Shown: positions 5,889 through 31,496 of the stretch, piece after piece
Numbering within the stretch: position 1 is the first letter of the stretch
How the letters are laid out: each line of letters opens with the position of its first letter
Assembly (NCBI GenBank): GCA_052033955.1
Contig: JBPOJD010000003.1
Span: 23,128-87,127, forward strand
From: Candidatus Hydrogenedentota bacterium
Lineage (GTDB): Bacteria; Hydrogenedentota; Hydrogenedentia; Hydrogenedentales; SLHB01
Length of the DNA stretch: 64,000 nucleotides
Direction of reading: 5' to 3'
Notes under the pieces: model-generated
Databases searched by the model: none
Seen by the model: only the letters and a program-made list of their open reading frames with translations
What the model was told of the DNA's origin: nothing
Made by a program: the position numbers and the translations under genes

Positions 5889-5914
5889 CCGCCACGGCCT
5901 GAGGCCCGCTTGCG

Positions 5915-9587: not shown

Positions 9588-9627
9588 CGTACGTGCCATC
9601 CGCTTCGGTGTGAAAGGAGAGACGACC

Positions 9628-10623: not shown

Positions 10624-10698
10624 ACGTCAGGAAAAGCGCCGGTATACTCGTGGCTCACGCTCCGGGGACGCGCTGCTGCAAAGGATGGGACGGCAATC

Positions 10699-12902: not shown

Positions 12903-12950
12903 GGTCCGTTCTCAAGACCCTTCCTTGCGGCGCATCGTGCGGGGCCACGT

Positions 12951-14423
12951 TCAGATCTGACGGCCCCCCCGGGCCAGTTTCCCGCGAACGAAGCCGCTGA
13001 TCTGACGTCGTTCCTTCGGCGACACGATGCCAAACGCGAAGAGAACGAATACGAAGCCCATCAACGCCCCCGTCCTCACGGGCAGCGATACCAGGTAGGA
13101 CAGCGGATACGCGACGTAACAAAGTGCGCCGAGCGCGCCACCCGCGAGGAGGAGGGCGGCCAGGCGGCCGCGCTCATAGGGCACCGGATACACGCGCTGT
13201 GCCAGGACATACGCAACGCAGGCCTCCAGACTGAAGGCGAGGAACGTTGCCTGCGCGGCGCCTTCCATGCCGATGACGCGGATCAGCACCAGGGTCAGGA
13301 CCACCTTGGCCGCGGCGCCCATCACGTAGACCACCGCAACCAACGAGGTCTTCTTGGCGATGGTGATGTTGTTGCTCAACAGGAGCGTCGTCATGGACGA
13401 TACATACGAGAACGCGAACCACGGGATGTAGCGCACGGCGGCGGCGAGTGCGGGGGTGCCAAGAATCAGCACCAGTTCGGGAGCGAACGCGGTCAGACCG
13501 AGTGCCGCAAACAGCACGGCGGCAATCAGCAGGCGGTGAATGCGGCCAAGTATGGCCGGTCCATCGGGCTCGTTGGCGATCTGGAACGAGGCGGGTGGCC
13601 AGGCAGTCTGCATGGACCGTGTGACCAGCGCCATCATGATGGAGACTTTGAAGGCGAAGGAGTACGGCGCCATGGCCTCCAGGCCGAAGGCGCTCCGCAG
13701 GATGTAGCGGTCGGATACCGTTATCACGACGTAGGCCAGACCGCACAGCGTGAGCGGGACCCCGAAGGTGAGCATCTTGCGCGCCAGGACGGGGTCAAAA
13801 CGCGGGACGACCCATTTCCGGCACACCCACAGGCCGCTCAGCGCCATGGCCGACAGCCCGGCAAGATCGCCCCAGAGCACGCCGGCCGTGCCCATGTCGA
13901 AGTACACCACCAGCAGCAGGATAAGGGGCGGCCCCAGAACGACCCGTACGATAGTGAGCGTGACGTAGGTCGCGCTGCGTTCCTGGGCGCGCAGCAGCGA
14001 CAGTGGCTGGTTTCCAAGGACGGTTACGGCAGTGAGACAGACAATGAGCGGCACAAGCCCGGCGTGTTCCGGAGATCCAAAGATCGCCTGTGCCAAGGGG
14101 CGGCTGAACGCGAATCCAGCCACGATGCCAGTGCCTGCGAACAGCGCTACCAGGGCCAGGCTCGTGCTGAAGATCCGGCGACGCGACTCCTCGCCGTCAA
14201 CAAGATAATAGAAGCGCATCAGGGCGGTTGAGAGGCCTATCTCCAGAACGGGGATAGCGAACAATACCGTTGTGGTGCTCAGGTCCCAGATCGACATCTC
14301 GGCGAGTTGATCCTGCCACACGCGCGAATAGATAGGCAGAAGAATAAACGAGATGCCCCGGCTGGCAATCAATCCGGCGCTGTATATGCCCGTGTGCCAA
14401 AGCGTCCGCCGCGTTACTCCCAT
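12951..14423 (-). CDS. Oligosaccharide flippase (Wzx / polysaccharide biosynthesis protein, MOP superfamily)
   Basis: About 12-14 predicted transmembrane helices. The N-terminus MGVTRRTLWHTGIYSAGLIASRGISFILLPIYSRVW is typical of PST-family flippases. Confidence 0.75.
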   Translation of the reverse strand: MGVTRRTLWHTGIYSAGLIASRGISFILLPIYSRVWQDQLAEMSIWDLSTTTVLFAIPVLEIGLSTALMRFYYLVDGEESRRRIFSTSLALVALFAGTGIVAGFAFSRPLAQAIFGSPEHAGLVPLIVCLTAVTVLGNQPLSLLRAQERSATYVTLTIVRVVLGPPLILLLVVYFDMGTAGVLWGDLAGLSAMALSGLWVCRKWVVPRFDPVLARKMLTFGVPLTLCGLAYVVITVSDRYILRSAFGLEAMAPYSFAFKVSIMMALVTRSMQTAWPPASFQIANEPDGPAILGRIHRLLIAAVLFAALGLTAFAPELVLILGTPALAAAVRYIPWFAFSYVSSMTTLLLSNNITIAKKTSLVAVVYVMGAAAKVVLTLVLIRVIGMEGAAQATFLAFSLEACVAYVLAQRVYPVPYERGRLAALLLAGGALGALCYVAYPLSYLVSLPVRTGALMGFVFVLFAFGIVSPKERRQISGFVRGKLARGGRQI

Positions 14424-15865
14424 GAGGCGTCCGCCCCCCCTTCCACCTGAGGCTTACCGGTCGACGCAAGGAGATGAAGTGTCAGCCCCATGGACATATA
14501 GAGCGCGATGATGCTGCCAACCGCGAGCGGTTGCAGCATGGAGAATCCGAGCGCGCAGCAGTACAATGCGAGCATCGCGACCACCGGGGCGGCGTCAGCC
14601 GTGGTATCCCGGCGGAGTCCCCGGAATACGCGCCGGATCCATGCCACGTGAAACGCGCAGAAGAGCAGGAACCCCGGCACGCCCGTCTGGTACAGCACCG
14701 TCAGCAGTGTGTTGTGGGTACTGGAACGATACCAGTGAAAGAGACCATCGGATGCCCGGAAGGGATACACCAGTACCTGGCCCAGCCCGGCTCCGAGAAG
14801 TGGCCGTGCCGAAAACTGCCGCCAAGCTTCCTGCCACGCGTAGTAGCGCATGTCGTCCTTGAGCGAGAACGATGCCACGCGATCAACGAACTGCTCCCAC
14901 GCGTCGGTGAACGCGTGTGGAAACACGTAGATCGCGGCCGCGGCGCCACACGCGAGCAGAAGGGTGCCGAAGACACACACGTTGAAGAGTCCCTTCAGCC
15001 GTTCGCGCCGGATCCACGCGGCCCCCGCGAGTGCCAGCAAGGGAACGGCCAACGCAAGCACCGCCGATACGCGGTAACCGCTCATGAGCAGCAGCACCAT
15101 GGCCAGGGCGGCGCCGGGCACAGCCATCAGTTTGCCGAACCTTGATCCAGGCGTGCGCAGAATGGCGGCGAAATACGCCAGCGACATGGCCAGCGTGATG
15201 CATTCGGTGTACGAGAGCAGACGCGGCGACGGTATGTTGGCCATAATCACAAACTGGTGTTCGCGCCACGTCTGGCCGGTGGCCAGCCGGTACAGTCCCA
15301 TCGCGGCGACGAGGAGGAATGCGGTCCACAGGGCGGCGGGCACCAGGCGGAGGTGACGCCGGTCAAGCGGCATCAGCAGGACCAGGGGGAAAGCCAGGGA
15401 GTAGAAGAATATCCGCCGATAGGCCCCCAGAACGTCGTTGATGCGATGGTCCCGTAAGACAAGAGTCATCGCCAGTGCCAGGATGCCCCAACAGAAGTAG
15501 GCCGTGTAGGCCCTGGGGACACCAAGTTTGGGCGGCGCGCCGCAGGGTTCCGGGCTTCGTGTTCCTTCGGGTTTGAGCCAGCGCACCACCGGCAACGAGA
15601 GCATCAGCAACAGCACCGCATCCGCGCCGTAGAAGGAGTACCCGCCGATGGAAACCGGGTGCTCGTTCATGGCCACGGCGGCGCCGGTGAGCACGGCGAA
15701 GAATGGCAGCACCAGCCAATCGCCGACGGGCAGCAAAAAGAGTGCGACGGCCACGGCGATGAGCCCCAGAAGAACCGTCAGTTCCACCCAAACCAGCGCG
15801 AAGCCCGCGGCCGCCACCACGACGAGCGCCACTATTCTGGTTGCGGATGTGGATCGGGTCTGCAT
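14414..15865 (-). CDS. O-antigen ligase/polymerase-like membrane protein (Wzy_C domain)
   Basis: Multi-transmembrane protein with a central periplasmic loop (GYRVSAVLALAVPLLALAG...HNTLLTVLYQTGVPG) typical of the Wzy/WaaL family. The six-frame ORF extends to 16612, but its first 249 codons are Arg/Pro-rich, hydrophilic and overlap the divergent asnB-like gene. The ATG at 15865 (MQTRSTSATRIVALVVV...) is chosen as start; the alternative is 15964. Confidence 0.6.
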   Translation of the reverse strand: MQTRSTSATRIVALVVVAAAGFALVWVELTVLLGLIAVAVALFLLPVGDWLVLPFFAVLTGAAVAMNEHPVSIGGYSFYGADAVLLLMLSLPVVRWLKPEGTRSPEPCGAPPKLGVPRAYTAYFCWGILALAMTLVLRDHRINDVLGAYRRIFFYSLAFPLVLLMPLDRRHLRLVPAALWTAFLLVAAMGLYRLATGQTWREHQFVIMANIPSPRLLSYTECITLAMSLAYFAAILRTPGSRFGKLMAVPGAALAMVLLLMSGYRVSAVLALAVPLLALAGAAWIRRERLKGLFNVCVFGTLLLACGAAAAIYVFPHAFTDAWEQFVDRVASFSLKDDMRYYAWQEAWRQFSARPLLGAGLGQVLVYPFRASDGLFHWYRSSTHNTLLTVLYQTGVPGFLLFCAFHVAWIRRVFRGLRRDTTADAAPVVAMLALYCCALGFSMLQPLAVGSIIALYMSMGLTLHLLASTGKPQVEGGADASWE

Positions 15866-16165
15866 CGTGTCTGCGGAGTTTCCTGTGCCGTACCGCCCGA
15901 TAGGACCCGCTGCACGCTGCCGCACCGTGCCGGGCCAAGCCGCCGAAACTATAGCACACGCCATGAACCGTGCGGTAGCCGGCGTGGAGCCGGACAACCT
16001 GATCCTGAGCACCGTGACATCCCCCGCGCCCCGCCTCTCGTCTCTCGGAAAAGCCGTGCCGCGCGGTGGTCGTTTGCGCGGCCCGACCATGCTTGGTATC
16101 CTGCGGTGCATCAGTAGTTGTGCCGTCAATATCAAGGACGTACGCGCGTCCAGTGGAGGGATCGC

Positions 16166-18061
16166 ATGTTCTCGTTTCTCTTCGTTGCGGGCTGTGAAGA
16201 CCAGGCTGCGGGCGAACTGCTCGCGGCAGCTTGCGCGGTGATGAGCGGGCAGATGCCGGGCTGGCGAGCTGACGGCCGCATCGAGACGGCAGACCTGCCC
16301 GAGATCAGCGGTGGATTTGCTGTCATGGTGCCACGGGTCGGTTGGGAGCGTCCCCTCGTGGACGTTCATGTAGACGAGGATACCGCGGCGGTCGTCTATG
16401 GATCGCTCATCCTTGGCGAGGCGTCGATTGCCCGGGCGCTTTGTGGCGCATACCGTCGCGGCGGCGCGTCGGCCGCCCGGCGCCTCGAGGGCCACTATGG
16501 CGCCGTGGTCGTTGATCGTGCCAAGGGCGAGACCGTGGTGCTCGGCGATGTTTTGGGGGACCGGTCGTTGCGTTATGTGCATTCGGGCGGCATGTTGCTG
16601 GTCAGCCCGCATGACCTCACCCTCGTGGCGACCGGGCGCGTGGACGTGACGGACGTTGATCTGTGCAGCGCGGCCGCAGTGCTTGCCTTGGACAACTCCA
16701 CCAAGTCGAAGAGCCTGCTGAAGGGTATCGAGCCAGTGCCGCCGGAGACTTGGCTGCGCTGGCGCCCGGGCCGCCTTGACCAGATGGTGGATCAGCCTTT
16801 TTCATTCGAGAACCGCATTGCGGCGAACGATGCCACGGCCCTGCGCGACCAGAACGAGCGCATTCTAGCGCTGGCACGCCAGCAGGCGGCCGAACATCTC
16901 GCTGGCCGTGATGAGATCGCCCTTGACCTTACGGCTGGCCAGGACTCCCGCGCGATCCTGGCCCTGATCCGTTCGATTTCCGAGCCGCCCCGGATCAACG
17001 CCTATTGTGAGGGCGCACCGTGGTCGCTCGATGTCCGCGGCGCCAGAACAGTTGCACGGGCGGCGGGCATCCATTTTTCCTCGGCCAATCCTTCACCGGT
17101 CGAACCGGACACGTATCTGGACAACCTGGCTCGCAGCGCGTTCTGGATGAACGGTGCGACGGATGCCCAGCGCATGGTTACGGCCCGGCCCGTCTTCCCG
17201 CCTGCGGGCGTTCGCGTGTTTGGCGTCCCGGGGGAGTGTTTCCGGGACCCCTATCCGCTCGGCGATATCAGTGCCTGGCGCGACCAGCCGGCGGTCCGGT
17301 GTGTTTCCGATTTCATCTTCTCGAGAAGCCGGCACCGCACAAGCGGACTGGCGTTTATTCGTTTCCACACGCTTCCGTTCAGAGACGAGCTGCGCCGCTC
17401 AGTCCGCGAGCGTGTCGAGCAACGGCTCAACGACTTTGCCGCGTTCGCGGACGATCCGCACGACATCTGGAGTCTCTTCTACCTGCTTGAGCACATCATG
17501 ATCTGGGGGCAGATGGTCTATCGTGAACCCTATTGCCAGCACTACTGGATCCCGTTTGGCAGCCCGTCCCTGCTCGCGGAGACCTTCCGGTTTCCGGCGC
17601 CGATTGGCCCGCATTGCACGCTTCACCGCGACGCGATTCGGCGGTTCTTCCCGGAGGCCTACCGGATTCCGGTCAACGGCCGCCTTTTCCTGTTCTCGGA
17701 GACCCTTTCCAAGGCGTACAAATACAAGTACTACGCGGAAAAGGCGGTGATGCGGCTGCTGGGGCGCTTCGGGTCGCGCACCCGCCTCTATCAGGACAAG
17801 CTGCGGGCGCATCAGGATGAGCGTGGACGGTTTCTGGCCGAAACGCTGGGGGGCGTGGTGCGCGAGCGCCTGACCGGTTCCGGGAGCGTCGGGGGGCAAC
17901 TTTTCGGCGATGAGGGCCTTGACCGGCTCATGGCGCAGTTCATGGCCGAGCCCGGCTACCGGCACAGCCTCGCCTCCGTATCCCTGCTGCTGTCGATCGA
18001 GAGCTTCCTGCAACAGGCGAGAAATGTCGGGGCGGCCGCCGGTCTTTCTCATCGCGGGTGA
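16166..18061 (+). CDS. Asparagine synthase-family amidotransferase (AsnB/WbpS-like), EPS-associated
   Basis: The AsnB fold and synthetase domain, including a PP-loop-like LTAGQDSRAIL motif, are recognisable. The ATG at 16166 has a GGAGGG Shine-Dalgarno. The N-terminus (MFSFLF...) lacks the Cys2 nucleophile found in the MCG start of canonical AsnB. Confidence 0.75.
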   Translation: MFSFLFVAGCEDQAAGELLAAACAVMSGQMPGWRADGRIETADLPEISGGFAVMVPRVGWERPLVDVHVDEDTAAVVYGSLILGEASIARALCGAYRRGGASAARRLEGHYGAVVVDRAKGETVVLGDVLGDRSLRYVHSGGMLLVSPHDLTLVATGRVDVTDVDLCSAAAVLALDNSTKSKSLLKGIEPVPPETWLRWRPGRLDQMVDQPFSFENRIAANDATALRDQNERILALARQQAAEHLAGRDEIALDLTAGQDSRAILALIRSISEPPRINAYCEGAPWSLDVRGARTVARAAGIHFSSANPSPVEPDTYLDNLARSAFWMNGATDAQRMVTARPVFPPAGVRVFGVPGECFRDPYPLGDISAWRDQPAVRCVSDFIFSRSRHRTSGLAFIRFHTLPFRDELRRSVRERVEQRLNDFAAFADDPHDIWSLFYLLEHIMIWGQMVYREPYCQHYWIPFGSPSLLAETFRFPAPIGPHCTLHRDAIRRFFPEAYRIPVNGRLFLFSETLSKAYKYKYYAEKAVMRLLGRFGSRTRLYQDKLRAHQDERGRFLAETLGGVVRERLTGSGSVGGQLFGDEGLDRLMAQFMAEPGYRHSLASVSLLLSIESFLQQARNVGAAAGLSHRG

Positions 18062-18121: not shown

Positions 18122-18928
18122 ATGAAGCTCCTGCGTTGGATGGGTCTGCTATTGGCACTGCTGTTGGGACTCGGAGAGGGCGCGCCAGCGGTGGCGTCAG
18201 CGTCGGGACCCGGCGGTGTGTTGGGCGACTGCGGCTTTTTCATGGCCCGTGTCTGGTTTGACAACAACAAGCCGGATCCCAAGTCATGGAATATTTATCC
18301 GGGCGCGGACCGCAATGCTCTCGAGGAACTCCAGGCGTCGATGCGGTGCAGCGTGCACTTGCCCGGCGGCACGACCAACCTGCAACCCCGGACCGGCGAC
18401 CAGAGTCTCTTCAACGCCGTGGTCGACCTCCACTCCCTTGCCGTGTTGCGCGAGTACCCCGTCTTGTTCATGACATCGGACCGCTGTTTCGATCTGGATC
18501 CGCAACAGAAAAACAACCTGAAGGTCTATCTCGAACAGGGGGGCTTCCTTCTGTTGGATGACTGTGTGTGTTCAAGCGTTGTGGACTCCTGCACCTGCAA
18601 GGAGTGTGCGCCGGATGAGTTCTATCAGTGCGCCTACGCGATGCTCGAGGAATTGTTTGGTGCGGGCGCGGTGACACCGTTGCCGCTGGACCATGAGGTC
18701 TTCCACAACGTCTACGATCTCAGCGCCGTGGGCCTGCCGCACCTGCAAGGGATCAACCACGGCGGCCAAGGCGTCCATATCGACGGCCGCCTGGCGGTGT
18801 TTCTCAGTTCGACCGACATCCACTGCGGCTGGGGAGACCGCGAGCGCACCGAGTTCAAGGGCCGTCACGGTTACGACGAGGCGGTCCAGATGGCGGTCAA
18901 CATCTTCATGTATGCGATGACGCATTAG
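18122..18928 (+). CDS. Secreted protein, DUF4159-like (ThuA/GATase1-like fold)
   Basis: Signal peptide MKLLRWMGLLLALLLGLGEGAPAVASA. Motifs GGFLLLDDC and the C-terminal YDEAVQMAVNIFMYAMTH recall DUF4159 proteins common in Planctomycetes and Verrucomicrobia. Confidence 0.45.
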   Translation: MKLLRWMGLLLALLLGLGEGAPAVASASGPGGVLGDCGFFMARVWFDNNKPDPKSWNIYPGADRNALEELQASMRCSVHLPGGTTNLQPRTGDQSLFNAVVDLHSLAVLREYPVLFMTSDRCFDLDPQQKNNLKVYLEQGGFLLLDDCVCSSVVDSCTCKECAPDEFYQCAYAMLEELFGAGAVTPLPLDHEVFHNVYDLSAVGLPHLQGINHGGQGVHIDGRLAVFLSSTDIHCGWGDRERTEFKGRHGYDEAVQMAVNIFMYAMTH

Positions 18929-18949: not shown

Positions 18950-19600
18950 CTACAGGTACCGTCCGCAGCCGTGCCACGTCTGGTCGTCGACCGTCAGGGT
19001 GACGCTGTGGTCAAAGCGTTCGCCGCTCATGATGTCCCGGCACGGCTCGCGGGTGATGATGACCCACACGTCGTGCTCTCCGGTCACCGCGTGGTAGACC
19101 GTGCGCGGGCCGTCAGTCGCAGGGCCGGGATCCGGCACGGTCACGTGGCGCTCGCCGTAGTCCGCCACCACCACAATGCGGTCGCCCGGGATGATCTCGA
19201 GGGTCCAGCCGGGTTCCTGACCGATCGCGCGGAAGGCTGCGCCGCGCGCGCGGGCGTCGTCCCACGGCTGGGAGGAGTAGGGTTCGGTGATCACGCAGTC
19301 GTTACAGGCGTTTCCATCCATCTCGACCATGGCGGCGTCGCCTTTCATCCAGACCATCATCCCGGCGCCCTCATATTTCACGCCGGATGCGGTCCGGACG
19401 TGGCGCAGCACCTGCCGGACGCCGTCCGGACGATCGACGACCAGGGTATCCGCGTCGACCACGGCATCGAGTGTGATGCCATCGCAGGTGATGCGGATCG
19501 CGTGCGGTTCGGGCGCGTCGAGCGACTCCGGGGGGCCGAGCGGGGCGGTGGCGCAGCCAGCGGCGGGGAGCAGCGCAGCGAGTAGGAGGAGGCATTTCAT
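18950..19600 (-). CDS. Lipoprotein with MliC-like N-terminal half and META/DUF306-like C-terminal half
   Basis: Lipobox LLPAAGC after an MKCLLLLAAL signal. Two small beta-rich modules with conserved Cys pairs. Confidence 0.45.
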   Translation of the reverse strand: MKCLLLLAALLPAAGCATAPLGPPESLDAPEPHAIRITCDGITLDAVVDADTLVVDRPDGVRQVLRHVRTASGVKYEGAGMMVWMKGDAAMVEMDGNACNDCVITEPYSSQPWDDARARGAAFRAIGQEPGWTLEIIPGDRIVVVADYGERHVTVPDPGPATDGPRTVYHAVTGEHDVWVIITREPCRDIMSGERFDHSVTLTVDDQTWHGCGRYL

Positions 19601-19910: not shown

Positions 19911-22900
19911 TTACGGTTCCAGAAAATCCGGGATGCCGTTGCCCGAGCTGTCGCCTTGCCCCTCGACGGCATCGGGGATGCCGTCGCCGTCGGAATCTGC
20001 CTCGGGGTCCAGGATCGGCAGGATGCCGTGGGTCACGAGCTGCCAATACTCGGTCGGCAGCACAAAGCTCGCGCCTTGCGCGAGGATGTAGTCGACGATC
20101 TGGTCGAACACGGGAAGGTTGCCGGGGAAGACCGGGGCATCCGGGTGAATCTGCAACACCAGGTACTCGGGTTCGGGCCGATAGTGCCCAACAAAGTGGT
20201 CGTAATCGAAGGTGCCAATCGTGACCGGCTCGAGCGAGAAGTCGCGGCCAAGCACCATCTTCGTCGAACCCGCGGATGGTCCGTACAGCCACACCTCGAT
20301 GTCCGGCGATTCGTTGATTACCTGCGTAGTTGCCGCGTCGATCTGGTTGAAGGGGGCGCCAAAGGCCGTGAAGGGGAACCCGAGCACATCTCGGGCCAAC
20401 GCCTCGGACATATCGACGTGCGCCTTCTGGAACGAGTAGGGCGTGTTGAAGAACTCGGTCCAGCCGACGCCGGACGAGTGGTCGTAGCCGTGCAGCCAGA
20501 ATTCGAAGCGCCCGGTCTCATGCAGCGCCACGGTGAGGTCGATGTATGCGCCCCAGGCGTTGTCGGCCGGGGGCGTGGGTACCGACGGGTAATCCGGGTC
20601 GAGTGATTGGGCGACGACACCCATGGAGGACTTGATCCCCTTGTCGAGGATGTAGTCGGCGTAGATCTGCCAATAGGGTCCGACGCCGTTGGGCTCCCAT
20701 GGGTAACGCGCCCAGTCGTCTGCCTTGAGCATCACAAATTGGTTGTACAGGACCAGTGCGGCGGATCGGGTGACCAGCGGAACGCCCTGCCGCGATACCG
20801 TCACGCTGACTACCGCGTACCCAGGTTCGACCGCGCTGGGAGCCGTCAACACCGCCGAGGAGCCCTGGGCCGTGAGCGAGCCGGCGGTCGTGGTCCACTG
20901 GTAGGACCAGTAGGGATCCAACTCGTCGCCCGGCGTCACGTGCAGCGTGACGGACTGGCCGGGACGCAGTGAGCCAGTCGCAGGCAGAACATGTAGGTCA
21001 TCCGGATCGGCAATGTGGGTCGGTTTGTCGATGTAGTTGGGCAGGCCGCCGGGTGTCAGAGCATCCGGTGTGCCGTCCCCGTCCGAATCGAGATCGAGGA
21101 AATTGGGGATGCCGTCCCCCTCGAGGTCCTCCATCCCTTCCATGTGATCGGGAATCCCGTCGCCGTCGGTGTCTCCCAAGGGGTCGAGCATCGGCAGCGT
21201 TCCAGTCCTTGCCAGCCGGGCGTATTCGGTCGGAAGGATGAAGGTGGCCTTGTTGGCGACCAGCCAATCGAGGATCAGGCCAAATTCCGGGAAGTTGTCG
21301 CGGAAGGTCTGAGCCCAAGGCTGATGCTGGAGCACCAGGACGCCCGGTGTGGCCGTGTAAGTGGAGAGGAAGCGTGCGTAGCTCGGCATCCCTGAGCTGG
21401 ATTCGACTTGGACGCTGGTCGAGGGCAGCACAAGCTTCTGTGAACCGCTTGCGGGCCCATACAGCCACGCCTCGACGTCTGGCGACTCGTTCACCACCGT
21501 GGTGGTGACGGCGTCGATGGCGTTGAACGGCGCACCAAAGGCCGTCAACGGAAACCCGAGGACATTGCGGGCCAAGGCCTGGCCGCGTTCGAGGTGATCT
21601 TTCTGATACTCATATGTGGTAGCGCGGAATTCCCACCAGCCCGATCCGCTCGACCGGTCGTAGCCGTTGTTCCAGAACTCAACATACCCACCGTCGTGGC
21701 GGTCGCGCATGTACTGCATGCTTTGCGCGTAGGTCGGGTGGTCGTTATAGGCCGGGTCCAGGAAACGGGTGAGCACCCCCGCCGACGTCTTGATGCGGCG
21801 CGCATCCACCACCTGCTCGAGATAGTACTTCCACTGATCAGGCACGACCTTCCACCCCACGAAGACGTCACCCTTGAGCACCACGAACTGCGAATAGACC
21901 AGCACAACGCAGTGGCCAGTACCCGCATGCTCGCCGTCGATATAGAGCGAGACGGACACGACGTCATAGCCGGGGTTCACGGTCGCCCCGGCGGCGTACG
22001 TGACCACGGCCCCATCGCTGGTGATGGACCCGCGCTGCGCGGCCCAGACGTACTGTCCCTGAGCGGCGGGCGAATCCACGCGGAGCGTCGTCGTCTGTCC
22101 CCGGCGGACCATGCGGGAGTCCGGCGTTACATGCAGCGTTGCTGGAGAGGCCGCAATGACGATGACGGTGCGCGAGACAGGCTCAGCGTTGTTTCCGGCG
22201 GCGTCGGCGACGTTGTAGGTGACGGTATAGGTGCCGGGTACGGCGGTATCGACGTTGCTTGTGGCGACGAGTTGTGCGGTGATGTCGCCATCGACGTCAT
22301 CGTGAGCGGTGGCGCCGGCATCGACGTAGGCGTCGCCGGTGTAGAGGTAGACGGTGGCGTCGCCGATGAGCGTGATGACGGGGGGCGCGGTGTCGGGCGG
22401 CGCGAGCACAGCGACGGTGCGCGAGACGGTCTCGGCCGCGATGCCGAGCGAATTGGAGACGTCGTAGGTGAGTACGTAGACACCCGGAGTGAACACATCC
22501 ACCGCGCCGCCCACGACGATACTCGCTGTCAGGTCGCCATCGGTTTCGTCATAGGCAGTTGCGCCAGCGTCCACATAGGGTTGGCCCGCGGCGACGGAGA
22601 CCCACGGTTCGCCCAGCAGGGTGATGGTGGGCTTGACGGCTGGGGTGGACTCGACCGTCAGCACGGCCGCGTTGGAGACGGCATTGCCAAGCCAGTCGCC
22701 TGCCCGGTTGCGGATTTCGCAGGTGTACACGCCCGCGTCATCGCTCTGAACGGCCGCGAGCGAGAGCGTTGGCGCTTCGGCGCCCGGCAGGGGCGTGCCA
22801 TCCTTCCTCCACTGGTAGAAGAGCGGTTCCGACCCATCGGCGACCACGGTGAACGTGAAGGGCTGACCGATATAGGCCGTGCTGCCCTGAGGGTGCGTGA

Positions 22901-24044
22901 GAATAGCGGGCGGATGGTCTACCTCGAGGAAATCCGGGAGCCCGTTGCCATTGCTGTCTCCCGCCCCTTCGATGGTGTCGGGAATGCCGTCGCCGTCCGT
23001 GTCCGCATCCGGTTCAAGCGGCAGGCGGCCTTCGCGAACGAGGCGGTAGTACTCGGTGGGCAGGATGAAGGTCACCTTCTGGGCAACAAGATGGTCCAGG
23101 ACCTGTTCAAACTGCGCGAAGTTGTCGCGGAAGGTCTGAACATAGGGGTGGTGTTGCAGCACGACGACGTTTGGCTGGGCCGAGTAGATTGAAGTGAAGC
23201 GGCTGTAGCTTGGTGACCCCCAACTGCTCTCGATCTCGCCGCCGCCGCGGCTGAGCGTGACGCCGTTGAACCCGGTCGTGGGGCCGAAGAGCCACACGCG
23301 CAGGTCCGGCGACTCGTTGGCCACGGTCACGGTCGTCGCGTCGTACTGATTGGCCGGCGCCCCGAACGCGGTCATCGGGAAGCCGAGAACAGTGCGCGCC
23401 AGGTTTTCGGTGAGGCTCATGTGGCTCTTCTGGAACTCGTAGGTGGTATTCATGAACTCGTACCACCCGGTGCCGCTCTGATGGTCGTATCCTTTGTTCC
23501 AGAACTCGACGCGTCCGGTTGCGTGCAGCGCCGACATGTACGCCATGTTCTGGGCATAACTTGCCAGGTTGTTGTAGGCGGGGTCGAGAAAGCGGCCCAG
23601 CACGCCGATGGATGTCTTGATCTTGCGAGTCGTGACCACGCGGTCAATGTAATAGAGGTAGTTGGCGGGGATGACCTTCCAGGTCACCCAGTCTTCGGCC
23701 TTGAGGACCACAAACTGGGCGTAGACCAACAGGGCGCAGTACCGGGTATCCAGCAGGGTGTCGCCGGAGTGAACCGACACGGACACGATGTCGTAGCCGG
23801 GCGCGAGGCCGGTCGCGGCCGAGTAGGTTGCCTGGGCGCCGTTGCCGGAGACGAGACCGCGCTGAGCCGTCCAGGTATAGGTCCACGCGGGGTCGGGAGG
23901 GGTGGCTGTCTGGGCGTGCAGGGCCGTGGACTGGCCTGTGCGCACGGCCCACTGGCCGGGGACGACGGTGAGGGATTCTAGCGCTGCCTGCGCGGCAACG
24001 GCGGGCAAAAGCAGCGCCAGGAAAACACGTATCCACGGACCCAT
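19911..24044 (-). CDS. Giant secreted multidomain protein (1377 aa): three polysaccharide-deacetylase-like modules (DUF2334-like), one Ig I-set-like domain, two DUF5011 Ig-like domains, and Ca-binding TSP3-like motifs
   Basis: Signal peptide [21 protein letters not shown]. The ATG at 24044 has an AGGAGG Shine-Dalgarno 5 nt upstream; the upstream part of the ORF to 24104 is rejected. There are three approximately 340-aa paralogous modules (...FVVLK.D.W..W...P..Y.YY.....D...IKTS.GVL.RFLDP.Y.......YAQ.M.YM...H..G.VEFW..GYD..SG.GW.EF..T.Y..QK.H......LAR.VLGFP.TAFGAP.N..D..T..V.NESPD...WL.GP..G). DxDxDGxxD-type motifs recur ([29 protein letters not shown]). Confidence 0.8.
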
Positions 24045-24259
24045 GCGGCACCTCCTTCCGAGACAGATTTCGCCTCGGAAAGATAGGTGCGCCCCGCAAC
24101 CCATTCGTCGCGTTTACACGCTCAGTATAGCACGGAACAGCCGTTGGAGGAGCAATATTTCTGCCGGAACGGGACTCAAAGCAATGCCGGCGGCCCGCTT
24201 GTCGCGGACCGCCGGCACGTTCCGTCGCGTTGCGCCCCCTTGGACGCCAAGGTGTTGTC

Positions 24260-27200
24260 TTATCTGAAGCTGCGCGTCGTGGCCACAACCCTGACCGTGC
24301 GCGTTACCGTCTTGGCCGCGTTGCCCGCCGTATCGCTCACGTTGTAGGTCAACGTATAGGTGCCGGCCACGGACGTGTTCACCGTGCCACTTACCACAAT
24401 GCGCCCGGTGATGTCGCCGTCGACGTCATCATAGGCGGTGGCGCCTGGATCCGTAGAGGCTGAGCCGACGGGAATCCGTACATTGGACGAGCCGATCAGC
24501 GTGATCACCGGCGGCGTCGTGTCGAGGACCGGGGCCGGTTCCGGCTCGGGCTGAGGGGCCGGGCTGCTGGAACTGTGGACGAACTCGAACGCGCCGATGT
24601 CCGGGGCGCCGCCCTGGGGCACCGGCGTGCCGTCGAAGTCCGCCTCGACGCCGACGTAGGCGCCCGCATCGACGAGCGGGCTGTCCGGCTTCAGGCGGAA
24701 GTCGCCCTTGGCCGGGTCCACGAACTTGTGGTCACTCACGCGCAGGTCGCCGGGGCGCAGCGTGAGGTTGCCCGGGACGGCGTTGTGGCTCACGGCCGGA
24801 CTCGAGTTGGTCCACATGTACCGGCCCGTGGCCGAGATTGCGTTGTTCCTGACGGTCGCGCTGGGACAGTCGTGCAACTCGATGTCGTAGTCGCGGACGC
24901 CGTGGAACGTGTTGTTCTCGATGCGGATACCCGGGAGCGGCACGACCTCGCGGGTCGAGTCATTGATGCCCCAGATGTTGAGGCCACGGTAGGCCGTGAT
25001 GACGTTGTTGCGGAACGTGATGTCACGGGTGGGCTGGCGCATCTGGGAAATCATCGCGGCCTGATACCCCGCGTTGCCGGTTGGCAGATTGACCGTGTTG
25101 CCTTCGATCAGGATGTCGTAGGCAGGCCCGAAGGTCTGGAAGGCATCGACATGAGGCCCGACGTTGCCGTAATCGTCCATCGTGATGCTGTGGATGTGGT
25201 TGCCGCGGATCACGTGGTTCCGGCCACCAAACTTGATGCCGTCGGCGTCGGGTCCGCCGGCCGTGCTCAGTGTGGGATACAGCGGGTGCTGCACGGTGTG
25301 GCTGATGTCGTTGTACTCGATCAACTGGGCCATGCCGTTCAGCGTGATGCCCGCGTAGGCGCCGGCATACTCAATGCGGTTGGCGCTGATCACGTTGTAG
25401 CTGCTGTCCGCGGCGTCCTCGCCGAGGGTCGAGTACACCATGACCCCTTCCCGCAACGTGTGGTGAACGTAGTTGTTCTTCACCGTGCAGTACTTGGTGT
25501 TGATCAGGGCGACGCCACTTCCCGTGCCCCAGACATCCCATGAAGCCAGCCGGGGAATCGTGATCTCGAAACCGTCGATCTGGACGTAGGAGCCGCGTAC
25601 CGTGAAGCCGTAGGTGACCACGCCCGGTGCCGCAGCCTTGAAGACAAGCGGGGCGCTGGCCGTCCCGGACCGCGTGATCGTAACCCGCTGGGCATAGGTG
25701 CCCGGGGCCACGAGACAGGTGTTCCCAGCAGGCATGGAGTTGGCGGCCTTCTGGATCGTCTTCCACGCTGCCGTGGGCGAAAGGCCGCTGTTGAGGTCGT
25801 TGCCGGTGGCCGCGTTCACGTAGTACGTGTTGGCATCGGCGATGACCTGTTCGACCTTGACGTAGCGGGTGACCGGCGTGGCGGCGTTCCCGGCGTTGTC
25901 CTTGACGTTGTAAACCACCGTATAGTTGCCCGCCACGTACGTGTTCACCGTGCTGGTCGCCACAATGCGGCTGGTGATGTCGCCGTCCACATTATCCGAG
26001 GCCGTGGCGCCGGCATCGGTGTACACCGCGCCCACCGTGAGCGTCACCTGGGCCGATCCGAGCAGGGTGATGACCGGCGGCGTCGTATCGGGAGCGGTCT
26101 GGACAACCACCGTGCGCACGACCGGTGTGGCAGCGTTCCCGGCGTTGTCCTTGACGTTGTAGGTGACCGTGTAGGTGCCGACCGCGTTCGTGTTGACGTT
26201 GCTGGTCGTCACGATCCGGCTGGTGATGGTGCCGTCGACGTTGTCCGAGGCCGTCGCGTCGGCGTCGGTGTAGGCCGTGCCCACGGTGACCGTGACGGTT
26301 GCCGACCCGAGCAGGGTGATCACCGGCGGAGTCGTGTCGACGACATTGACCGCACGCACGACGGGGGTGGCGGCGTTCCCGGCGTTGTCCTTGACGTTGT
26401 AGGTGACGGTGTAGGCGCCGACCTTGGCCGTATTGACGTTGCTGGTGGCGACGACGCGGCTGGTGATGTCGCCGTCCACGTTATCCGAGGCCGTGGCGCC
26501 CGCGTCGGTGTAGGTGGCACCAAAGGAGACCGTAACCGTCGCCGATCCGAGGAGCGTAATGACCGGAGGGGTCGTATCGGGAGCGGTCTGGACGACCACC
26601 GTGCGGACAACAGGCGTGGCGGCGTTTCCGGCGTTGTCCTTGACGTTGTAGGTGACGGTGTAGGTACCCGCCGCGTTCGTGTTGACGTTGCTGGTGGTGA
26701 CGATACGGCTGGTGATGTTTCCGTCGACGTTGTCCGAAGCCGTGGCACCCGCGTCGGTGTAGGTGGCGCCAAGAGAGACGGAGACAGTCGCCGACCCGAG
26801 CAGCGCAATGACCGGCGGCGTCGTGTCGACGACGTTGACGGTGCGCGCCACGGGCGCTGCGGAGTTTCCAGCGATGTCCTTGACGTTGTAGGTGACATTG
26901 TAGGTGCCGACCTTCGCGGTATTGACGTTGCTGGTGGCGACGATACGGCTTGTGATGTTTCCGTCGACGTTATCGGAGGCGGTAGCGCCCGCATCGGTGT
27001 AGGTCGTGCCGAAGGAGACGGTGACGGTCGCGGAGCCGAGCAGGGCGATGACCGGCGGCGTCGTGTCGACGACGTTGACGGTGCGGACGACGGGCGCAGC
27101 GGCGTTTCCGGCGCTGTCCTTGACGTTGTAGGTGACGTTGTAGGCACCTACCTTCGCGGTATTGACGTTGCTGGTGGCGACGATGCGGCTGGTGATGTTT

Positions 27201-28693
27201 CCGTCGACGTTATCGGAGGCGGTAGCGCCCGCATCGCTGTAGGTCGTGCCGAAGGAGACCGTAACGGTCGCCGACCCGAGGAGCGTGATGACCGGCGGGG
27301 TGGTGTCCGCGGGGTTGGTGCCAACCGAGGTCGAGAACTCAAAAGCGCCGATATCCGGGGCCGATCCTTGCGGAACGGAGGTTCCATCGAGATCGCTCGT
27401 AATGCCGACATGGGTTCCCGCATCGATGAGCGGGCTGGTGGCCTGCAGGCGGAAATTACGGCCCGCGGCGTCCACAAACTTCGGATCGCTGATCCGGACG
27501 TCGCCGGACCGCAACGTGATCGAACCCGGGACAGCGTTATGGCTGGTGGTGGGCCCGGAATTGGTCCACATGTACCGGCCCGTGGCCGAAATGACGTTGT
27601 TCTTGACGGTTGCACTCGGGCAGTCGTGCAGTTCGACGTCGTAGTCGCGCACGCCGTAGAACGTGTTGTTCTCGATGCGGATGCCCGGAAGCGGGACGAT
27701 CTCGCGGGTCGAGTCGTTGATACCCCAGATGTTCAGCCCGCGGTACGCCGTGATGACGTTGTTGCGGAAGGTAAGGTCGCGCGTGGGGGTGCGCATCTGG
27801 GAGATCATCGCCGCCTGATAGGTGCCGTTGGTGGTCGGCAGGTTGATGGTATTGCCTTCGATGAGGATGTTGTAGGCGGGACCGAAGGTCTGGAAGGCAT
27901 CGATATGCGGACTCACGTTGCCGGTGTCCGCCATGGTGATGCTGTGAATGTGGTTGCCGCGGAAGATGTGGTCGCGGCCGTGGAACTTGATGCCATCGGC
28001 ATCCGGGCCACCGGCAGTGCTCAGTGTGGGATAGAGCGGGTGCTGGATGGTGTGGCTGATGTCGTTGTTCTCGATGAGCTGCGCGGCGCCATTGAGCGTG
28101 ATGCCGGCGTAGGCGCCCGCGTAGGCGATCCGGTTGCCGCGAATGATGTTGTAGCTGCTGTTGGTGGAATCCGCGGCGCCGGTCGTGAAGACCATGACGC
28201 CTTCCCGCAGCGTGTGGTGAATGTAGGTGTTCTGCACCGTGCAGTACTGCGTGTTGACGAGCGCGACCCCGCTGCCCTTGCCCCAGACGTCCCAGGAGGT
28301 CTGGCGAGGCATCGTGATCTCGAAGCCGTCGATGACGACGTAGCGCACGGTCGAGGAACCCTGGACCGTGAATCCCTGGGTGACCACGGCGCCGTCAGCC
28401 TTGAAGATGAGGGGGGCCGAGGCCGTGCCCGAACGCGAGATGGTCACGCGTTCATTGTAGGTGCCCGGCGCGACGAGACAGGTATTGCCCGCGGGCATGC
28501 TGTTGGCGGCCTTCTGGATCGTGCGCCACGCGGAGGCCGACGAGGTGCCGGTGTTGGCGTCGTTGCCACTTGAACCGTTTACATAGTAGGTGGCGGCGTG
28601 GGCCATAGCGCCCGTGGCCAGCAGGGCCAGCACCACCACGGTGGTGAAAGCGCGGAAGGGCGGAATGCTTCTTCCTGTGCGAATTGTTCCCAT
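24260..28693 (-). CDS. Giant secreted protein (1477 aa): two right-handed parallel beta-helix (pectin-lyase-fold) modules separated by six tandem DUF5011 Ig-like repeats, with a seventh at the C-terminus
   Basis: Signal peptide MGTIRTGRSIPPFRAFTTVVVLALLATGAMAHAATYY. Shine-Dalgarno AAAGGAG upstream of the ATG at 28693. The beta-helix module (ATYYVNGSSGNDANTG...[34 protein letters not shown]...[29 protein letters not shown]...) occurs twice. The approximately 80-aa repeats begin DTTPPVITLLGSATVTVSFGTTY.DAGATASDNVDG.ITSRIV.TSNVNT...Y.VTYNVKD.AGNAA.PV.RTV.V. Confidence 0.8.
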   Translation of the reverse strand: MGTIRTGRSIPPFRAFTTVVVLALLATGAMAHAATYYVNGSSGNDANTGTSSASAWRTIQKAANSMPAGNTCLVAPGTYNERVTISRSGTASAPLIFKADGAVVTQGFTVQGSSTVRYVVIDGFEITMPRQTSWDVWGKGSGVALVNTQYCTVQNTYIHHTLREGVMVFTTGAADSTNSSYNIIRGNRIAYAGAYAGITLNGAAQLIENNDISHTIQHPLYPTLSTAGGPDADGIKFHGRDHIFRGNHIHSITMADTGNVSPHIDAFQTFGPAYNILIEGNTINLPTTNGTYQAAMISQMRTPTRDLTFRNNVITAYRGLNIWGINDSTREIVPLPGIRIENNTFYGVRDYDVELHDCPSATVKNNVISATGRYMWTNSGPTTSHNAVPGSITLRSGDVRISDPKFVDAAGRNFRLQATSPLIDAGTHVGITSDLDGTSVPQGSAPDIGAFEFSTSVGTNPADTTPPVITLLGSATVTVSFGTTYSDAGATASDNVDGNITSRIVATSNVNTAKVGAYNVTYNVKDSAGNAAAPVVRTVNVVDTTPPVIALLGSATVTVSFGTTYTDAGATASDNVDGNITSRIVATSNVNTAKVGTYNVTYNVKDIAGNSAAPVARTVNVVDTTPPVIALLGSATVSVSLGATYTDAGATASDNVDGNITSRIVTTSNVNTNAAGTYTVTYNVKDNAGNAATPVVRTVVVQTAPDTTPPVITLLGSATVTVSFGATYTDAGATASDNVDGDITSRVVATSNVNTAKVGAYTVTYNVKDNAGNAATPVVRAVNVVDTTPPVITLLGSATVTVTVGTAYTDADATASDNVDGTITSRIVTTSNVNTNAVGTYTVTYNVKDNAGNAATPVVRTVVVQTAPDTTPPVITLLGSAQVTLTVGAVYTDAGATASDNVDGDITSRIVATSTVNTYVAGNYTVVYNVKDNAGNAATPVTRYVKVEQVIADANTYYVNAATGNDLNSGLSPTAAWKTIQKAANSMPAGNTCLVAPGTYAQRVTITRSGTASAPLVFKAAAPGVVTYGFTVRGSYVQIDGFEITIPRLASWDVWGTGSGVALINTKYCTVKNNYVHHTLREGVMVYSTLGEDAADSSYNVISANRIEYAGAYAGITLNGMAQLIEYNDISHTVQHPLYPTLSTAGGPDADGIKFGGRNHVIRGNHIHSITMDDYGNVGPHVDAFQTFGPAYDILIEGNTVNLPTGNAGYQAAMISQMRQPTRDITFRNNVITAYRGLNIWGINDSTREVVPLPGIRIENNTFHGVRDYDIELHDCPSATVRNNAISATGRYMWTNSSPAVSHNAVPGNLTLRPGDLRVSDHKFVDPAKGDFRLKPDSPLVDAGAYVGVEADFDGTPVPQGGAPDIGAFEFVHSSSSPAPQPEPEPAPVLDTTPPVITLIGSSNVRIPVGSASTDPGATAYDDVDGDITGRIVVSGTVNTSVAGTYTLTYNVSDTAGNAAKTVTRTVRVVATTRSFR
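25873..27328. repeat. Six tandem, near-identical coding repeats of about 240 bp (DUF5011 Ig-like units) inside the giant beta-helix gene
   Basis: The unit ggcggcgttcccggcgttgtccttgacgttgtaggtgac recurs at about 25876, 26131, 26371, 26611, 26851 and 27091, i.e. a period of 240 bp (255 bp once), with only a few substitutions per unit. Confidence 0.85.
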
Positions 28694-29479: not shown

Positions 29480-30625
29480 TTACCGCGGCGCGGGAGGCCG
29501 CGGGATCGGGCGGGGCCGGTGGCGCCAGTTCTGGAAGGTGCGCCAGGTGTGCCGGGCCTGCATGGCCGCGCCGATGATGACCCGGCTCGCGGGGCTCTCG
29601 CAGATCTGGTACTCGCCGATGTACTGGATGTCCCGGCCGCCGACGCCCTTCTTGAAGGTGTAGCCGCCCGGGTACGCCACGGGATCGATGCCGCCCATGT
29701 CCAGGTGCCGGAAGCCCATTTCCTTGGCGGCGCAGATCTGATCCCAGACGAGCCGGTTCGCGGCTTGGCACGTGAGCGCGCGGTCGCTCGTGGCGAACAG
29801 GATTCCCATGGCCCGGCCCCCGACGGCCGAAAGCGTGGATGCGGCCACCGGCTCGCCCTCGGAGTACAGCACGGTGATGCGCATCTTGTGGTGATCCGGC
29901 AGGCGCCGCTGGATCTCGCGGAATTCGTTTACGTCCACGTAGCGCACGAAGCCCTTGCGCGCATGCATTACCTCGTAGAGGTCCGCCAAGTGCCCGTAGA
30001 GGTCGTCGCCGACGCCGTGGACGAGGGTGATGTCGCGGTCGTAGCTTTTCCGGAGCCGGTTTCGCCAGTCAGAGGCCAGCCCCTTGTGCAGGCCGTCGAT
30101 GGACGGGGTGAGGTCCAGCAGGAAGGTGCGGTAGGGCTTCGTCGCGGCCACAAGGCGGAAGCCTTCCTGTTCCAGGATGTCCCGGGCGGGACACGGCTCT
30201 TCGGCGACCTCGCGGGGGATGATCCGGAGCTGGAGCCCGCGCCGGGCGACAAATTCGTCCCGGAGCGCGCGCAGAACGGCCCGCAGGGCCTCGGGGTCGG
30301 CCTCGTGGCCGCGGGGCCGCCACATCGGGCCGAGGTACAGATACGCGACGCCCGCCCTGAGGACCGGGAGGACGAGCGCGCGCACCTGCGCGGCCGCCAC
30401 GACGCGTCCGCCACGGCGTATGACGACATGGTGCATGCGATGCGCGCCCCACCGGACCTCCTCATAGGCCCAAGTCTGGTAGATGGTCGCATCCTCGAAC
30501 TCGTCGACGATGGCGGTCCACTCGGAGGCGGTGACCTGGTCGATTTCCGCGGTGAACGCGTTGTCTGCGGCCACGCGGCGCCACGCCGCCGGGGGGGCGG
30601 CTTCACGGACGGGTGAAATGGACAC
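29480..30625 (-). CDS. FemAB-family (Acetyltransf_6/GNAT-fold) protein, EPS-locus associated
   Basis: Start is a GTG with an AAGGAG Shine-Dalgarno 6 nt upstream. Similar in length and sequence to the exosortase-system-associated FemAB family (...IYQTWAYEEV...LHKGLASDWRNRLRKSY...GGIDPVAYPGGYTFKKG...). Confidence 0.7.
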   Translation of the reverse strand: MSISPVREAAPPAAWRRVAADNAFTAEIDQVTASEWTAIVDEFEDATIYQTWAYEEVRWGAHRMHHVVIRRGGRVVAAAQVRALVLPVLRAGVAYLYLGPMWRPRGHEADPEALRAVLRALRDEFVARRGLQLRIIPREVAEEPCPARDILEQEGFRLVAATKPYRTFLLDLTPSIDGLHKGLASDWRNRLRKSYDRDITLVHGVGDDLYGHLADLYEVMHARKGFVRYVDVNEFREIQRRLPDHHKMRITVLYSEGEPVAASTLSAVGGRAMGILFATSDRALTCQAANRLVWDQICAAKEMGFRHLDMGGIDPVAYPGGYTFKKGVGGRDIQYIGEYQICESPASRVIIGAAMQARHTWRTFQNWRHRPRPIPRPPAPR

Positions 30626-31496
30626 TGGCCTCTCCTTTCGCCTCGATGCGTTCCGGGGAACGGCGCATCAGCCGGCGCATCAGCTGTCCCTTGATGGCCG
30701 ACATGACAGGCATCCAGCAATACGCGCCCTTGACCTTGAGCCGGAACTCCCACAGGAGGTCCGAGGGGTCCACGCGGACGCGTCCAATGACGAACTCGTC
30801 CTGGGTCATGCGGGCCGGCCGGGCATTGCCGGTGAACACCCGCCGGTAACCGGCGTTCCGCACCATGTCGACCAGGGATGCATTGTGGCGGCCGTAGGGG
30901 AACACAAAGGTGTCGATCTCGCGCCCCAGCGCCTGCTCGAGGCATTCCCGGGAGGCCTCGAGCTCCAGACGGGCCTCCTGTTCGTTGAGCAGACACATGT
31001 TCCGGTGGGAGACGCCGTGGGACCCGATGGCGACCAGGCCGGCGGGCAGTTGCCGCAGGTCGCTCGCCGAGGCCACGGTCTCCGAGGTGTCGCGCGAGTG
31101 GAGCGCCTGGCGCCAGTTGGCCGGTCCGCCCATCTTGCCCGAGGGCACAAAGACCGAACAGGGAAGGCCTCGCGAGACAATTTCGGGTATGGCCCCGGTG
31201 ACGGCGCAGGTGAACGCGTCGTCGAAGGTGAGAGCGGCGTAGCGGCTTCCAGGCGCGAGTCCGTGCCGTTCACCGGCCGGGACCACGCGGGCCATGCGCT
31301 GCAACTCGTCCAACTGGCGGCGGAACGCGGGCATCTCATCGGCGCGGACCGAGTGATAACACACCACCATGCAGGTGGGAGGCGTTTCCTGTCCGGCGGC
31401 GCGCCGGATCCGCTGCCAGGCCTGATGCAGGATCCAGTACACCTGGCTGACGGCGAGTGTGAGGATGCGGTGGAGGATGGCGGTTACCGTGTGCAT
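30603..31496 (-). CDS. Polysaccharide deacetylase (NodB homology domain, CE4)
   Basis: ALTFDDAFTCAVTGAIPEIVSRGLPCSVFVPSG (the TFDD motif) ... IGSHGVSHRNM (His motif) ... FVFPYGRHNASLV. The ATG at 31496 is chosen; the upstream 150 codons of the ORF are Arg-rich, overlap the next gene and are rejected. Confidence 0.75.
   Translation of the reverse strand: MHTVTAILHRILTLAVSQVYWILHQAWQRIRRAAGQETPPTCMVVCYHSVRADEMPAFRRQLDELQRMARVVPAGERHGLAPGSRYAALTFDDAFTCAVTGAIPEIVSRGLPCSVFVPSGKMGGPANWRQALHSRDTSETVASASDLRQLPAGLVAIGSHGVSHRNMCLLNEQEARLELEASRECLEQALGREIDTFVFPYGRHNASLVDMVRNAGYRRVFTGNARPARMTQDEFVIGRVRVDPSDLLWEFRLKVKGAYCWMPVMSAIKGQLMRRLMRRSPERIEAKGEASVHFTRP

Follow-up and report, generated by a model that had tools for sequence, protein, structure and literature searches.

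A secreted Hydrogenedentota protein with three deacetylase-like modules, of which only the last keeps the predicted active site

We analyzed a stretch of 64,000 nt from a Candidatus Hydrogenedentota bacterium (assembly GCA_052033955.1, contig JBPOJD010000003.1, positions 23,128 to 87,127; in the following called the window). The window consists mostly of exopolysaccharide (EPS) genes, which lie on both sides of a gene for a secreted multidomain protein of 1377 amino acids (aa). From Pfam matches and alignment, the order of domains in this protein is signal peptide, module 1, TSP3-like linker, Ig_3 domain, two DUF5011 domains, module 2, TSP3-like linker, module 3 and a further TSP3-like linker (Table 1). 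The three modules resemble polysaccharide deacetylases, and only module 3 retains all residues of the predicted active site.

A reading of the DNA made before this analysis (the original prediction) had placed a secreted protein of this length here, which is borne out, with the gene on the minus strand. The open reading frame (ORF) extends over 19911..24104, and the plus-strand translation of the same stretch is riddled with stops. The window has a GC content of 65 %, and the third codon positions of the true minus-strand frame reach a GC content (GC3) of 0.81; the long plus-strand ORFs within the gene are shadow ORFs of this GC-rich genome. We prefer the ATG at 24044, giving 1377 aa, over the upstream ATG at 24104 because a strong Shine-Dalgarno site, AAGGAGGT, precedes it. 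The signal peptide was judged by eye to be of the Sec type. The protein sequence is the same as that of the singleton NCBI protein P0002. A scan for promoters and terminators yielded none above chance.

Each module is composed of an immunoglobulin (Ig)-like beta-sandwich of ~85 aa and a DUF2334 (PF10096) domain of ~240 aa, together with TSP3-like linkers of the DxDxDGxxD type. The modules can be aligned end to end over ~355 columns with 46–55 % identity, confirming the proposed paralogy. Their catalytic domains are 59 % identical between modules 1 and 2, and module 3 shares 46–47 % with each of the others. Among the common motifs listed in the original prediction, VEFW..GYD..SG.GW.EF, LGFP.TAFGAP and NESPD occur in all three modules; RFLDPAY is confined to modules 1 and 2, with SLDPDY in module 3. 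For the N-terminal beta-sandwich, similarity to PKD, Big_2 and phage decoration proteins was weak. The DxDxDGxxD motifs reported between the modules were found as four exact copies, at residues 348, 958, 986 and 1350, and the linkers carrying them would bind calcium. The profile TSP3_bac (PF18884) scored 16.2 bits, under its 25-bit cut-off, with a sole stretch in linker 3 (residues 1350–1361), so that linker 1 is assigned by its motif only. DUF5011 (PF16403) was matched in two stretches with 133.2 bits (cut-off 27). The C-terminus showed neither a PEP-CTERM or LPXTG signal nor a transmembrane anchor.

The repeated domain matched DUF2334, an uncharacterized bacterial family within the superfold of glycoside hydrolases and deacetylases, with 71.3 bits (E-value 1.1e-19; gathering cut-off 26 bits) in three stretches. 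The match to Polysacc_deac_1 (PF01522) was marginal: the whole protein scored 24.2 bits (cut-off 23.1), and the one matched stretch, residues 165–244 in module 1, covered profile positions 46–118 only. Relatives score 23–48 bits with this profile and bear precomputed PF10096 and PF01522 annotations; one relative at JGI is named PgdA/CDA1 family deacetylase. Neither the whole protein nor a three-module profile retrieved a solved relative of the repeated module from the PDB by sequence; the matches were of the Ig type only. We then relied on AlphaFold models of module 3, which had a pLDDT of 41 from the single sequence and, rerun with an 11-sequence alignment, a pLDDT of 87 and a pTM of 0.87. 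With the latter model, Foldseek retrieved CE4 acetylxylan esterases and peptidoglycan deacetylases with E-values of 3e-8 to 1e-5, including the pseudoenzyme BA3943. In the model, the module fold is a distorted beta/alpha barrel of the NodB/CE4 type. Domain search and model thus agree with the deacetylase-like character first proposed.

Compared with established CE4 enzymes (SpPgdA, CtCE4, HpPgdA 3qbu and Mycobacterium smegmatis 3rxz), the module is divergent, with an identity of only 10–18 % besides the marginal PF01522 match. In the classification of NodB domains, 3rxz and 3qbu are assigned to the divergent subclass NodB1.2, in which no other member retains all five active residues (PMC10967932). 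The exopolysaccharide deacetylases PgaB/IcaB, PelA and Agd3 differ in having other domain partners and no tandem dead copies, and their fold scores place them farther away than the NodB1.2-type matches.

To place the modules within their family, we used an exhaustive profile search that identified 859 cluster representatives at a maximum E-value of 0.001, and residue statistics were drawn from the best 150; a word-indexed homolog search had recovered one match for module 3 and eight for a 30-sequence profile. Most DUF2334 relatives are single-domain proteins of about 250–450 aa. Among the best 150 representatives, only two have three modules (the 1377-aa protein and P0003) and about seven have two. 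The 1377-aa protein therefore departs from its family both in module number and in that modules 1 and 2 have lost the family's invariant residues.

These residues are near-invariant in the 169 domain hits obtained from the best 150 representatives and form four motifs, D-D (LKADD), H-G-x-x-H, F-G-A-P-x-N and L-Q-x-H-P. Further invariant residues beyond the CE4 set are E1181, E1197, Q1206 and D1236 (module 3 numbering). In the model of module 3, the D-D, HGYDH, FGAP and LQxHP motifs each lie at the C-terminal end of a predicted strand, and the CE4 active-site motifs are known to sit at C-terminal strand ends (PMC10967932). By hhalign, HGYDH aligned with HGVSH (MT2) and TFGAPxN with TFVFPYG (MT3) of a CE4 deacetylase encoded in the window. 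The Asp-Asp pair corresponding to MT1, placed after strand 1 by the secondary structure of the model, is complete only in module 3 (D1109, D1110) and reads E-D in module 1 and D-V in module 2. Likewise, the H-x-x-x-H of MT2 is complete only in module 3 (H1185, H1189), with K...H in module 1 and N...R in module 2. The histidine of the MT5-like L-Q-x-H-P, conserved to 98 %, is retained by modules 1 and 3 and replaced by Q in module 2. The spacing is one residue off LxH, and this motif was matched by strand position only. By analogy with CE4 enzymes, D1110, H1185 and H1189 would be the ligands of a divalent metal, D1109 the base activating water and H1300 the acid, and module 3 would remove N- or O-linked acetyl groups from sugar residues.

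As an alternative to an esterase or amidase, we also considered that the module is a glycoside hydrolase of the GH57 or GH38 type, which shares the superfold. This assignment was rejected and is extremely improbable, given the invariant D-D, H-x3-H and H in CE4 motif order and the hhalign alignment to a CE4 enzyme; moreover, Pfam reports DUF2334 and Polysacc_deac_1 but not GH57, and the JGI relative bears a deacetylase name.

Within the wider family, we observed a DUF2334-like subfamily (P0153–P0156; L013, L015, L024–L026, L028, L036, L038, L043, L044, L046, L061 and L063) in which the second motif histidine is replaced (HGY[KR]..) and FGPHWS or FGEHWS stands in place of FGAPxN. The new histidine of the latter motif may substitute as a ligand.

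We compared the three modules at 30 positions that are conserved to at least 85 % in 133 single-domain family members. Module 3 retains 28 of these positions, and none of the five predicted catalytic or metal-binding residues is lost. In module 1, 27 positions are retained, the losses being D117E, H184K and W129Y. Module 2 retains 26, and its losses are exactly D727V, H793N, H797R and H908Q, that is, the predicted metal-binding aspartate, both metal-binding histidines and the catalytic acid. Four random losses would all hit the five active-site positions with a probability of 5/27405. This selective loss suggests that the dead modules are intact folds from which the active site was removed, not decaying sequence, and judged by these substitutions modules 1 and 2 are probably folded pseudoenzymes. 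The active-site comparison thus gave the pattern expected from the original prediction, KGYDH (residue 184), NGYDR (residue 793) and an intact HGYDH (residue 1185) only in the C-terminal copy. One catalytic unit with two binding or decoy units is also the best reading of the family-wide conservation, and it is a reading of sequence. Looking for residues specific to the clade of degenerate modules described below, we found six positions only (Y131, Y163, S274, S279, V294 and R306), and we therefore claim no new site for it.

Module 1 could, instead of being dead, be active with altered chemistry or metal use, with Glu117 as base and Lys184 for the histidine ligand, so that the protein would have two activities and one dead module. 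Besides its 27 conserved positions, module 1 has D118, H188 and H299, the exchange of Asp for Glu is conservative, and E-D recurs in module 2 of P0003 and module 1 of P0004. In addition, metal-independent enzymes with a NodB fold exist, for example PuuE allantoinase (PMC10967932). The residue equivalent to H184, however, varies among the E-D modules (K, S, A or N), pointing to relaxed constraint rather than to a new catalytic residue, and an active module 1 appears distinctly improbable.

The CE4 pseudoenzymes BA3943 and Ba0150 of Bacillus anthracis and EcCDA of Encephalitozoon cuniculi are stand-alone proteins. In contrast, the dead domains described here are fused in tandem to an intact paralog and belong to a recurrent paralog lineage. 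The genomes of species representatives, a set outside of which the window's own genome lies, were scanned with the three-module alignment. The nearest relatives were found in a Candidatus Hydrogenedentes genome, followed by Nitrospiraceae, Verrucomicrobiota, Planctomycetota and Bacteroidota. The Hydrogenedentes genome alone has at least six paralogs on four contigs (L001–L004). Degenerate N-terminal modules together with an intact C-terminal module were found in P0003 (three modules), P0004 (two modules) and L002, and both modules are intact in the two-module protein P0005. The L002 protein has the order of the 1377-aa protein, with a dead module, Ig_3, two DUF5011 domains and a live module, and the cassette of NodB-like module, Ig_3 and DUF5011 repeats is fixed in P0004, P0008, P0011, L001 and L002.

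In a neighbor-joining tree of the modules, the N-terminal or degenerate ones form one clade (T_M1, T_M2, P6, L2_M1, L3, L4b, P3_M1, P3_M2, P4_M1 and P5_M1), and the intact C-terminal modules are located in other clades. The catalytic positions in the degenerate clade vary from protein to protein (E-D-K-H, D-V-N-R, N-N-N-A, G-T-N-F, E-N-A-C, E-D-S-H and E-D-S-R), and two of its members, P6 and P5_M1, are still intact. Because the substitutions differ and these two members are intact, the catalytic losses must have occurred several times. Between the window and the Hydrogenedentes genome, the dead modules are 56–58 % identical and the live module 51–52 %. Being at least as conserved as the live module argues for a retained function of the dead ones.

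On one of the Hydrogenedentes contigs (L004), two giant paralogs with one NodB-like domain each are encoded next to each other at 4634..9598 (+; 1654 aa) and 9626..14572 (+; 1648 aa). The catalytic signature is kept in the 1654-aa protein and lost in the 1648-aa protein (G-..N..F..N). By phmmer they have 14 and 13 copies of the Ig_3/I-set domain, and by Pfam 10 and 11 Ig_3 stretches, respectively. A gene for a protein with beta-helix and Ig domains follows at 14582..16783.

The 1377-aa protein could be mainly a structural matrix protein or adhesin, in which all three NodB-like modules would be lectin-like and catalysis by module 3 irrelevant or absent. Ig_3, DUF5011 and TSP3-like repeats are typical of surface adhesins, the sole NodB-like domain of the 1648-aa L004 protein and of L003 is dead and followed by 13 Ig domains, and catalytically inert CE4 proteins such as BA3943 and Ba0150 exist (PMC10967932). 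Against this stand the five predicted catalytic residues and the 28 of 30 conserved positions in module 3, the presence of at least one intact module in every multi-module relative examined, and the intact paralog immediately upstream of the dead L004 protein. We consider a purely structural role unlikely.

The Ig segment (residues 378–450) matched Ig_3 (PF13927) with 54.2 bits (E-value 2e-14; cut-off 30), I-set (PF07679) with 31.7 bits (cut-off 23.7) and also Ig_2; Pfam gave no match to Big_2 or Big_3 for these residues. The assignment to I-set/Ig_3 rather than to the common bacterial families thus holds, but its description as eukaryote-like and rare in bacteria is not supported. Ig-like domains on phages have long been known. 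By tblastn, we identified 441 phage records with this domain (tail, decoration and neck-whisker proteins), and phmmer found 39 copies in five related loci. The closest solved relatives are the phage tail proteins 9c2d and 9ncf, with 38.4 bits for the best single domain compared with 36.6 bits for titin. The phage tail, Hoc-like decoration and neck-whisker Ig domains have the motifs YQW(R/K)KDG and DAGxYTC in common with the domain described here, which is 38–41 % identical to phage tail proteins; the difference is that a single copy lies here between enzyme-like modules, whereas phages and L004 have arrays. The canonical Ig disulfide is incomplete, as W412 and C442 (Y-x-C) are present and the B-strand (FTFTV) is without cysteine, and the same applies to the aligned phage relatives. 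Horizontal acquisition from a metazoan was rejected in view of the best relatives being phage proteins, the 441 phage records and the 39 related copies. Ig_3 or I-set matches in bacteria should accordingly not be annotated as eukaryote-like acquisitions.

Table 1 Features of the gene for the 1377-aa protein and its upstream neighbor. Coordinates are positions in the window; residues are those of the 1377-aa protein.
Feature	Coordinates	Strand	Basis
Whole gene, 1377-aa secreted multidomain protein	19911..24044	-	Stop codon 19911-19913; GC3 0.81
Shine-Dalgarno site AAGGAGGT	24050..24057	-	5-nt spacing to ATG at 24044
Signal peptide, residues 1-20	23985..24044	-	Basic residue, hydrophobic core, A-Q-A; without lipobox cysteine
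Module 1, N-terminal Ig-like beta-sandwich, residues 22-106	23727..23981	-	Module alignment
Module 1, DUF2334/NodB-like domain, residues 107-342, degenerate (D117E, H184K)	23019..23726	-	Pfam, conservation
TSP3-like predicted calcium-binding linker 1, residues 346-375	22920..23009	-	Motif alone
Ig_3 / I-set-type immunoglobulin domain, residues 378-450 (W412, Y440-x-C442)	22695..22913	-	Pfam, phmmer, tblastn
DUF5011 (PF16403) domain 1, ~residues 474-546	22407..22625	-	Pfam; matches BT_2262 and chitinase 60 Ig-like domains
DUF5011 (PF16403) domain 2, residues 557-629	22158..22376	-	Best Pfam stretch, profile positions 1-71 of 71
Module 2, N-terminal Ig-like beta-sandwich, residues 634-715	21900..22145	-	Module alignment
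Module 2, DUF2334/NodB-like domain, residues 716-951, predicted dead (D727V, H793N, H797R, H908Q)	21192..21899	-	Conservation
TSP3-like predicted calcium-binding linker 2, residues 956-994, two DxDxDGxxD	21063..21179	-	Motif
Module 3, N-terminal Ig-like beta-sandwich, residues 1013-1098	20751..21008	-	Alignment; strands at pLDDT 65-85 in single-sequence model
Module 3, DUF2334/NodB-like domain, residues 1099-1343, predicted site intact (D1109, D1110, H1185, H1189, H1300)	20016..20750	-	
TSP3-like predicted calcium-binding linker 3 and C-terminus, residues 1348-1377	19914..20003	-	Motif, sub-threshold Pfam
Upstream neighbor, 1477-aa secreted protein, two right-handed beta-helix modules and seven DUF5011	24260..28693	-	

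The EPS genes of the window encode two UDP-sugar dehydrogenases, a Wzz-like protein, a heparinase II/III-like protein, GT4 glycosyltransferases, a flippase and a Wzy-like polymerase. A FemAB-like protein, a CE4 deacetylase, a DegT aminotransferase, a priming glycosylphosphotransferase, a chain-length determinant, an XrtA-system-like ATPase and a sigma-54 regulator are encoded in the window as well. The 1477-aa protein encoded directly upstream of the 1377-aa gene has two closely similar helix modules of ~440 aa with six near-identical DUF5011 domains between them and a seventh after the second module; this layout of module, stalk and module is also that of the 1377-aa protein. The only PDB sequence match of the helix module below an E-value of 0.1 was 7v6m (residues 2–64; E-value 9.6e-5). 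The homologs on L004 are flanked by a sigma-54 response regulator, a priming sugar transferase, the beta-helix and Ig protein and a sugar epimerase, and thus the pairing of homolog and beta-helix protein recurs in a second genome. The placement in an EPS locus beside a beta-helix protein had been part of the original prediction and was found in both genomes. The beta-helix neighbor is likely a partner in polysaccharide processing.

Several other genes of the window deserve mention. Directly downstream of the 1377-aa gene, 18950..19600 (-) encodes a 216-aa protein with an MliC-type lysozyme-inhibitor domain (E-value 1.3e-6), followed by a convergent gene for a DUF4159 protein at 18122..18928 (+). 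The 647-aa ORF at 16118..18061 (+) has a coding-like GC3 of 0.76 and no Pfam match at a maximum E-value of 0.001; since it overlaps the Wzy-like gene at 14414..16612 (-) by ~500 bases at its 5′ end, the start of either this ORF or the Wzy-like gene has probably been misplaced. The heparinase II/III-like protein (7404..9587, +; N- and C-terminal domains with E-values of 1e-40 and 1e-34) is encoded between the Wzz-like gene and the glycosyltransferases in the first EPS cluster. The ORF of the classical CE4 deacetylase (30603..31946, -) carries at its N-terminus an extra ~190 aa, rich in arginine and of non-coding appearance; the true start probably lies much further downstream, in the vicinity of PPTCMVVCYH.

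The surroundings also bear on the target of the protein. One active deacetylase with binding modules might serve feeding or competition by acting on foreign material, be it chitin, peptidoglycan, acetylated glycans of plants or algae, or the matrix of another organism, which we regard as the main rival explanation because one Hydrogenedentes genome holds at least six paralogs. These paralogs on L001–L004 resemble a degradative repertoire, the window also encodes a heparinase II/III-like lyase, and the combination of an enzyme with binding modules is typical of secreted glycan-degrading enzymes, as generally known for carbohydrate-active enzymes. On the other hand, the gene lies within biosynthetic EPS loci in two distant genomes, near a priming transferase and a sigma-54 regulator, and no transporter or sugar-catabolic genes were seen adjoining it. 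A foreign target is, on this balance, rather doubtful.

Our preferred reading, to which we assign a probability of about 0.55, is that of a secreted EPS-modifying deacetylase with one active module and two pseudoenzyme (binding) modules. The protein would be exported by the Sec pathway, bind calcium and act on polysaccharide outside of the cytoplasm. Only module 3 would be a working enzyme, a metal-dependent de-N- or de-O-acetylase. Modules 1 and 2 would, most likely, have retained their affinity for the polymer and thereby serve to target, anchor or space module 3, and Ig_3, DUF5011 and the TSP3 linkers may serve as a calcium-stiffened stalk or as spacers. The substrate would most likely be the EPS of the surrounding locus. 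Of these elements, the architecture, the fold, the residue pattern with its recurrence in relatives and the gene context come directly from the analysis, whereas metal binding, deacetylase chemistry, the affinity of the dead modules for the polymer and the nature of the substrate are what we infer.

Several observations weigh against this reading. The MT3 arginine is absent, as all three modules have FGAPFN and the family as a whole F-G-A-P-x-N, in which the proline of the CE4 motif RPPYG is kept; in NodB2 and Agd3 this arginine is supplied from elsewhere (PMC10967932). MT4 is not recognizable, and an invariant Asp (D1236) and Trp (W1252) are present. Because of the absent arginine and the unassigned MT4, we call the module CE4-like instead of counting it among the classical CE4 enzymes. 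It is a prediction that the five residues cluster around a metal, and glycan binding by the dead modules is presumed. As module 1 still has D118, H188 and H299, it might keep some activity. The protein has no recognizable signal for outer-membrane secretion or anchoring, and nothing ties it to its own EPS over foreign glycans. Finally, a full-text literature search for DUF2334 gave only two incidental mentions and no functional study, and thus no published activity for any member of the family.

All domain families of the 1377-aa protein and stand-alone CE4 pseudoenzymes are already known. Unusual are the tandem fusion of dead and live paralogs, the very specific loss of the active site, and its repetition within one paralog lineage. 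Tentatively, and well short of even odds, the degenerate modules may constitute a previously unrecognized class of deacetylase-derived carbohydrate-binding modules, in which the groove is kept and the metal site lost. The tandem copies would hold the polymer in register, so that the enzyme writes a spaced pattern of deacetylation. If so, the stand-alone dead versions in L003 and in the second L004 giant would be lectins for the same polymer.

DUF2334 is widespread and without a characterized member, and the protein and its relatives provide a testable prediction of its active site. They also represent a natural experiment, in which paralogs repeatedly and independently had only the predicted catalytic residues removed. 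If the dead copies bind glycans, an enzyme-derived binding module would be added to the carbohydrate-active toolkit, and a route to the patterned deacetylation of matrix polysaccharides would be shown.

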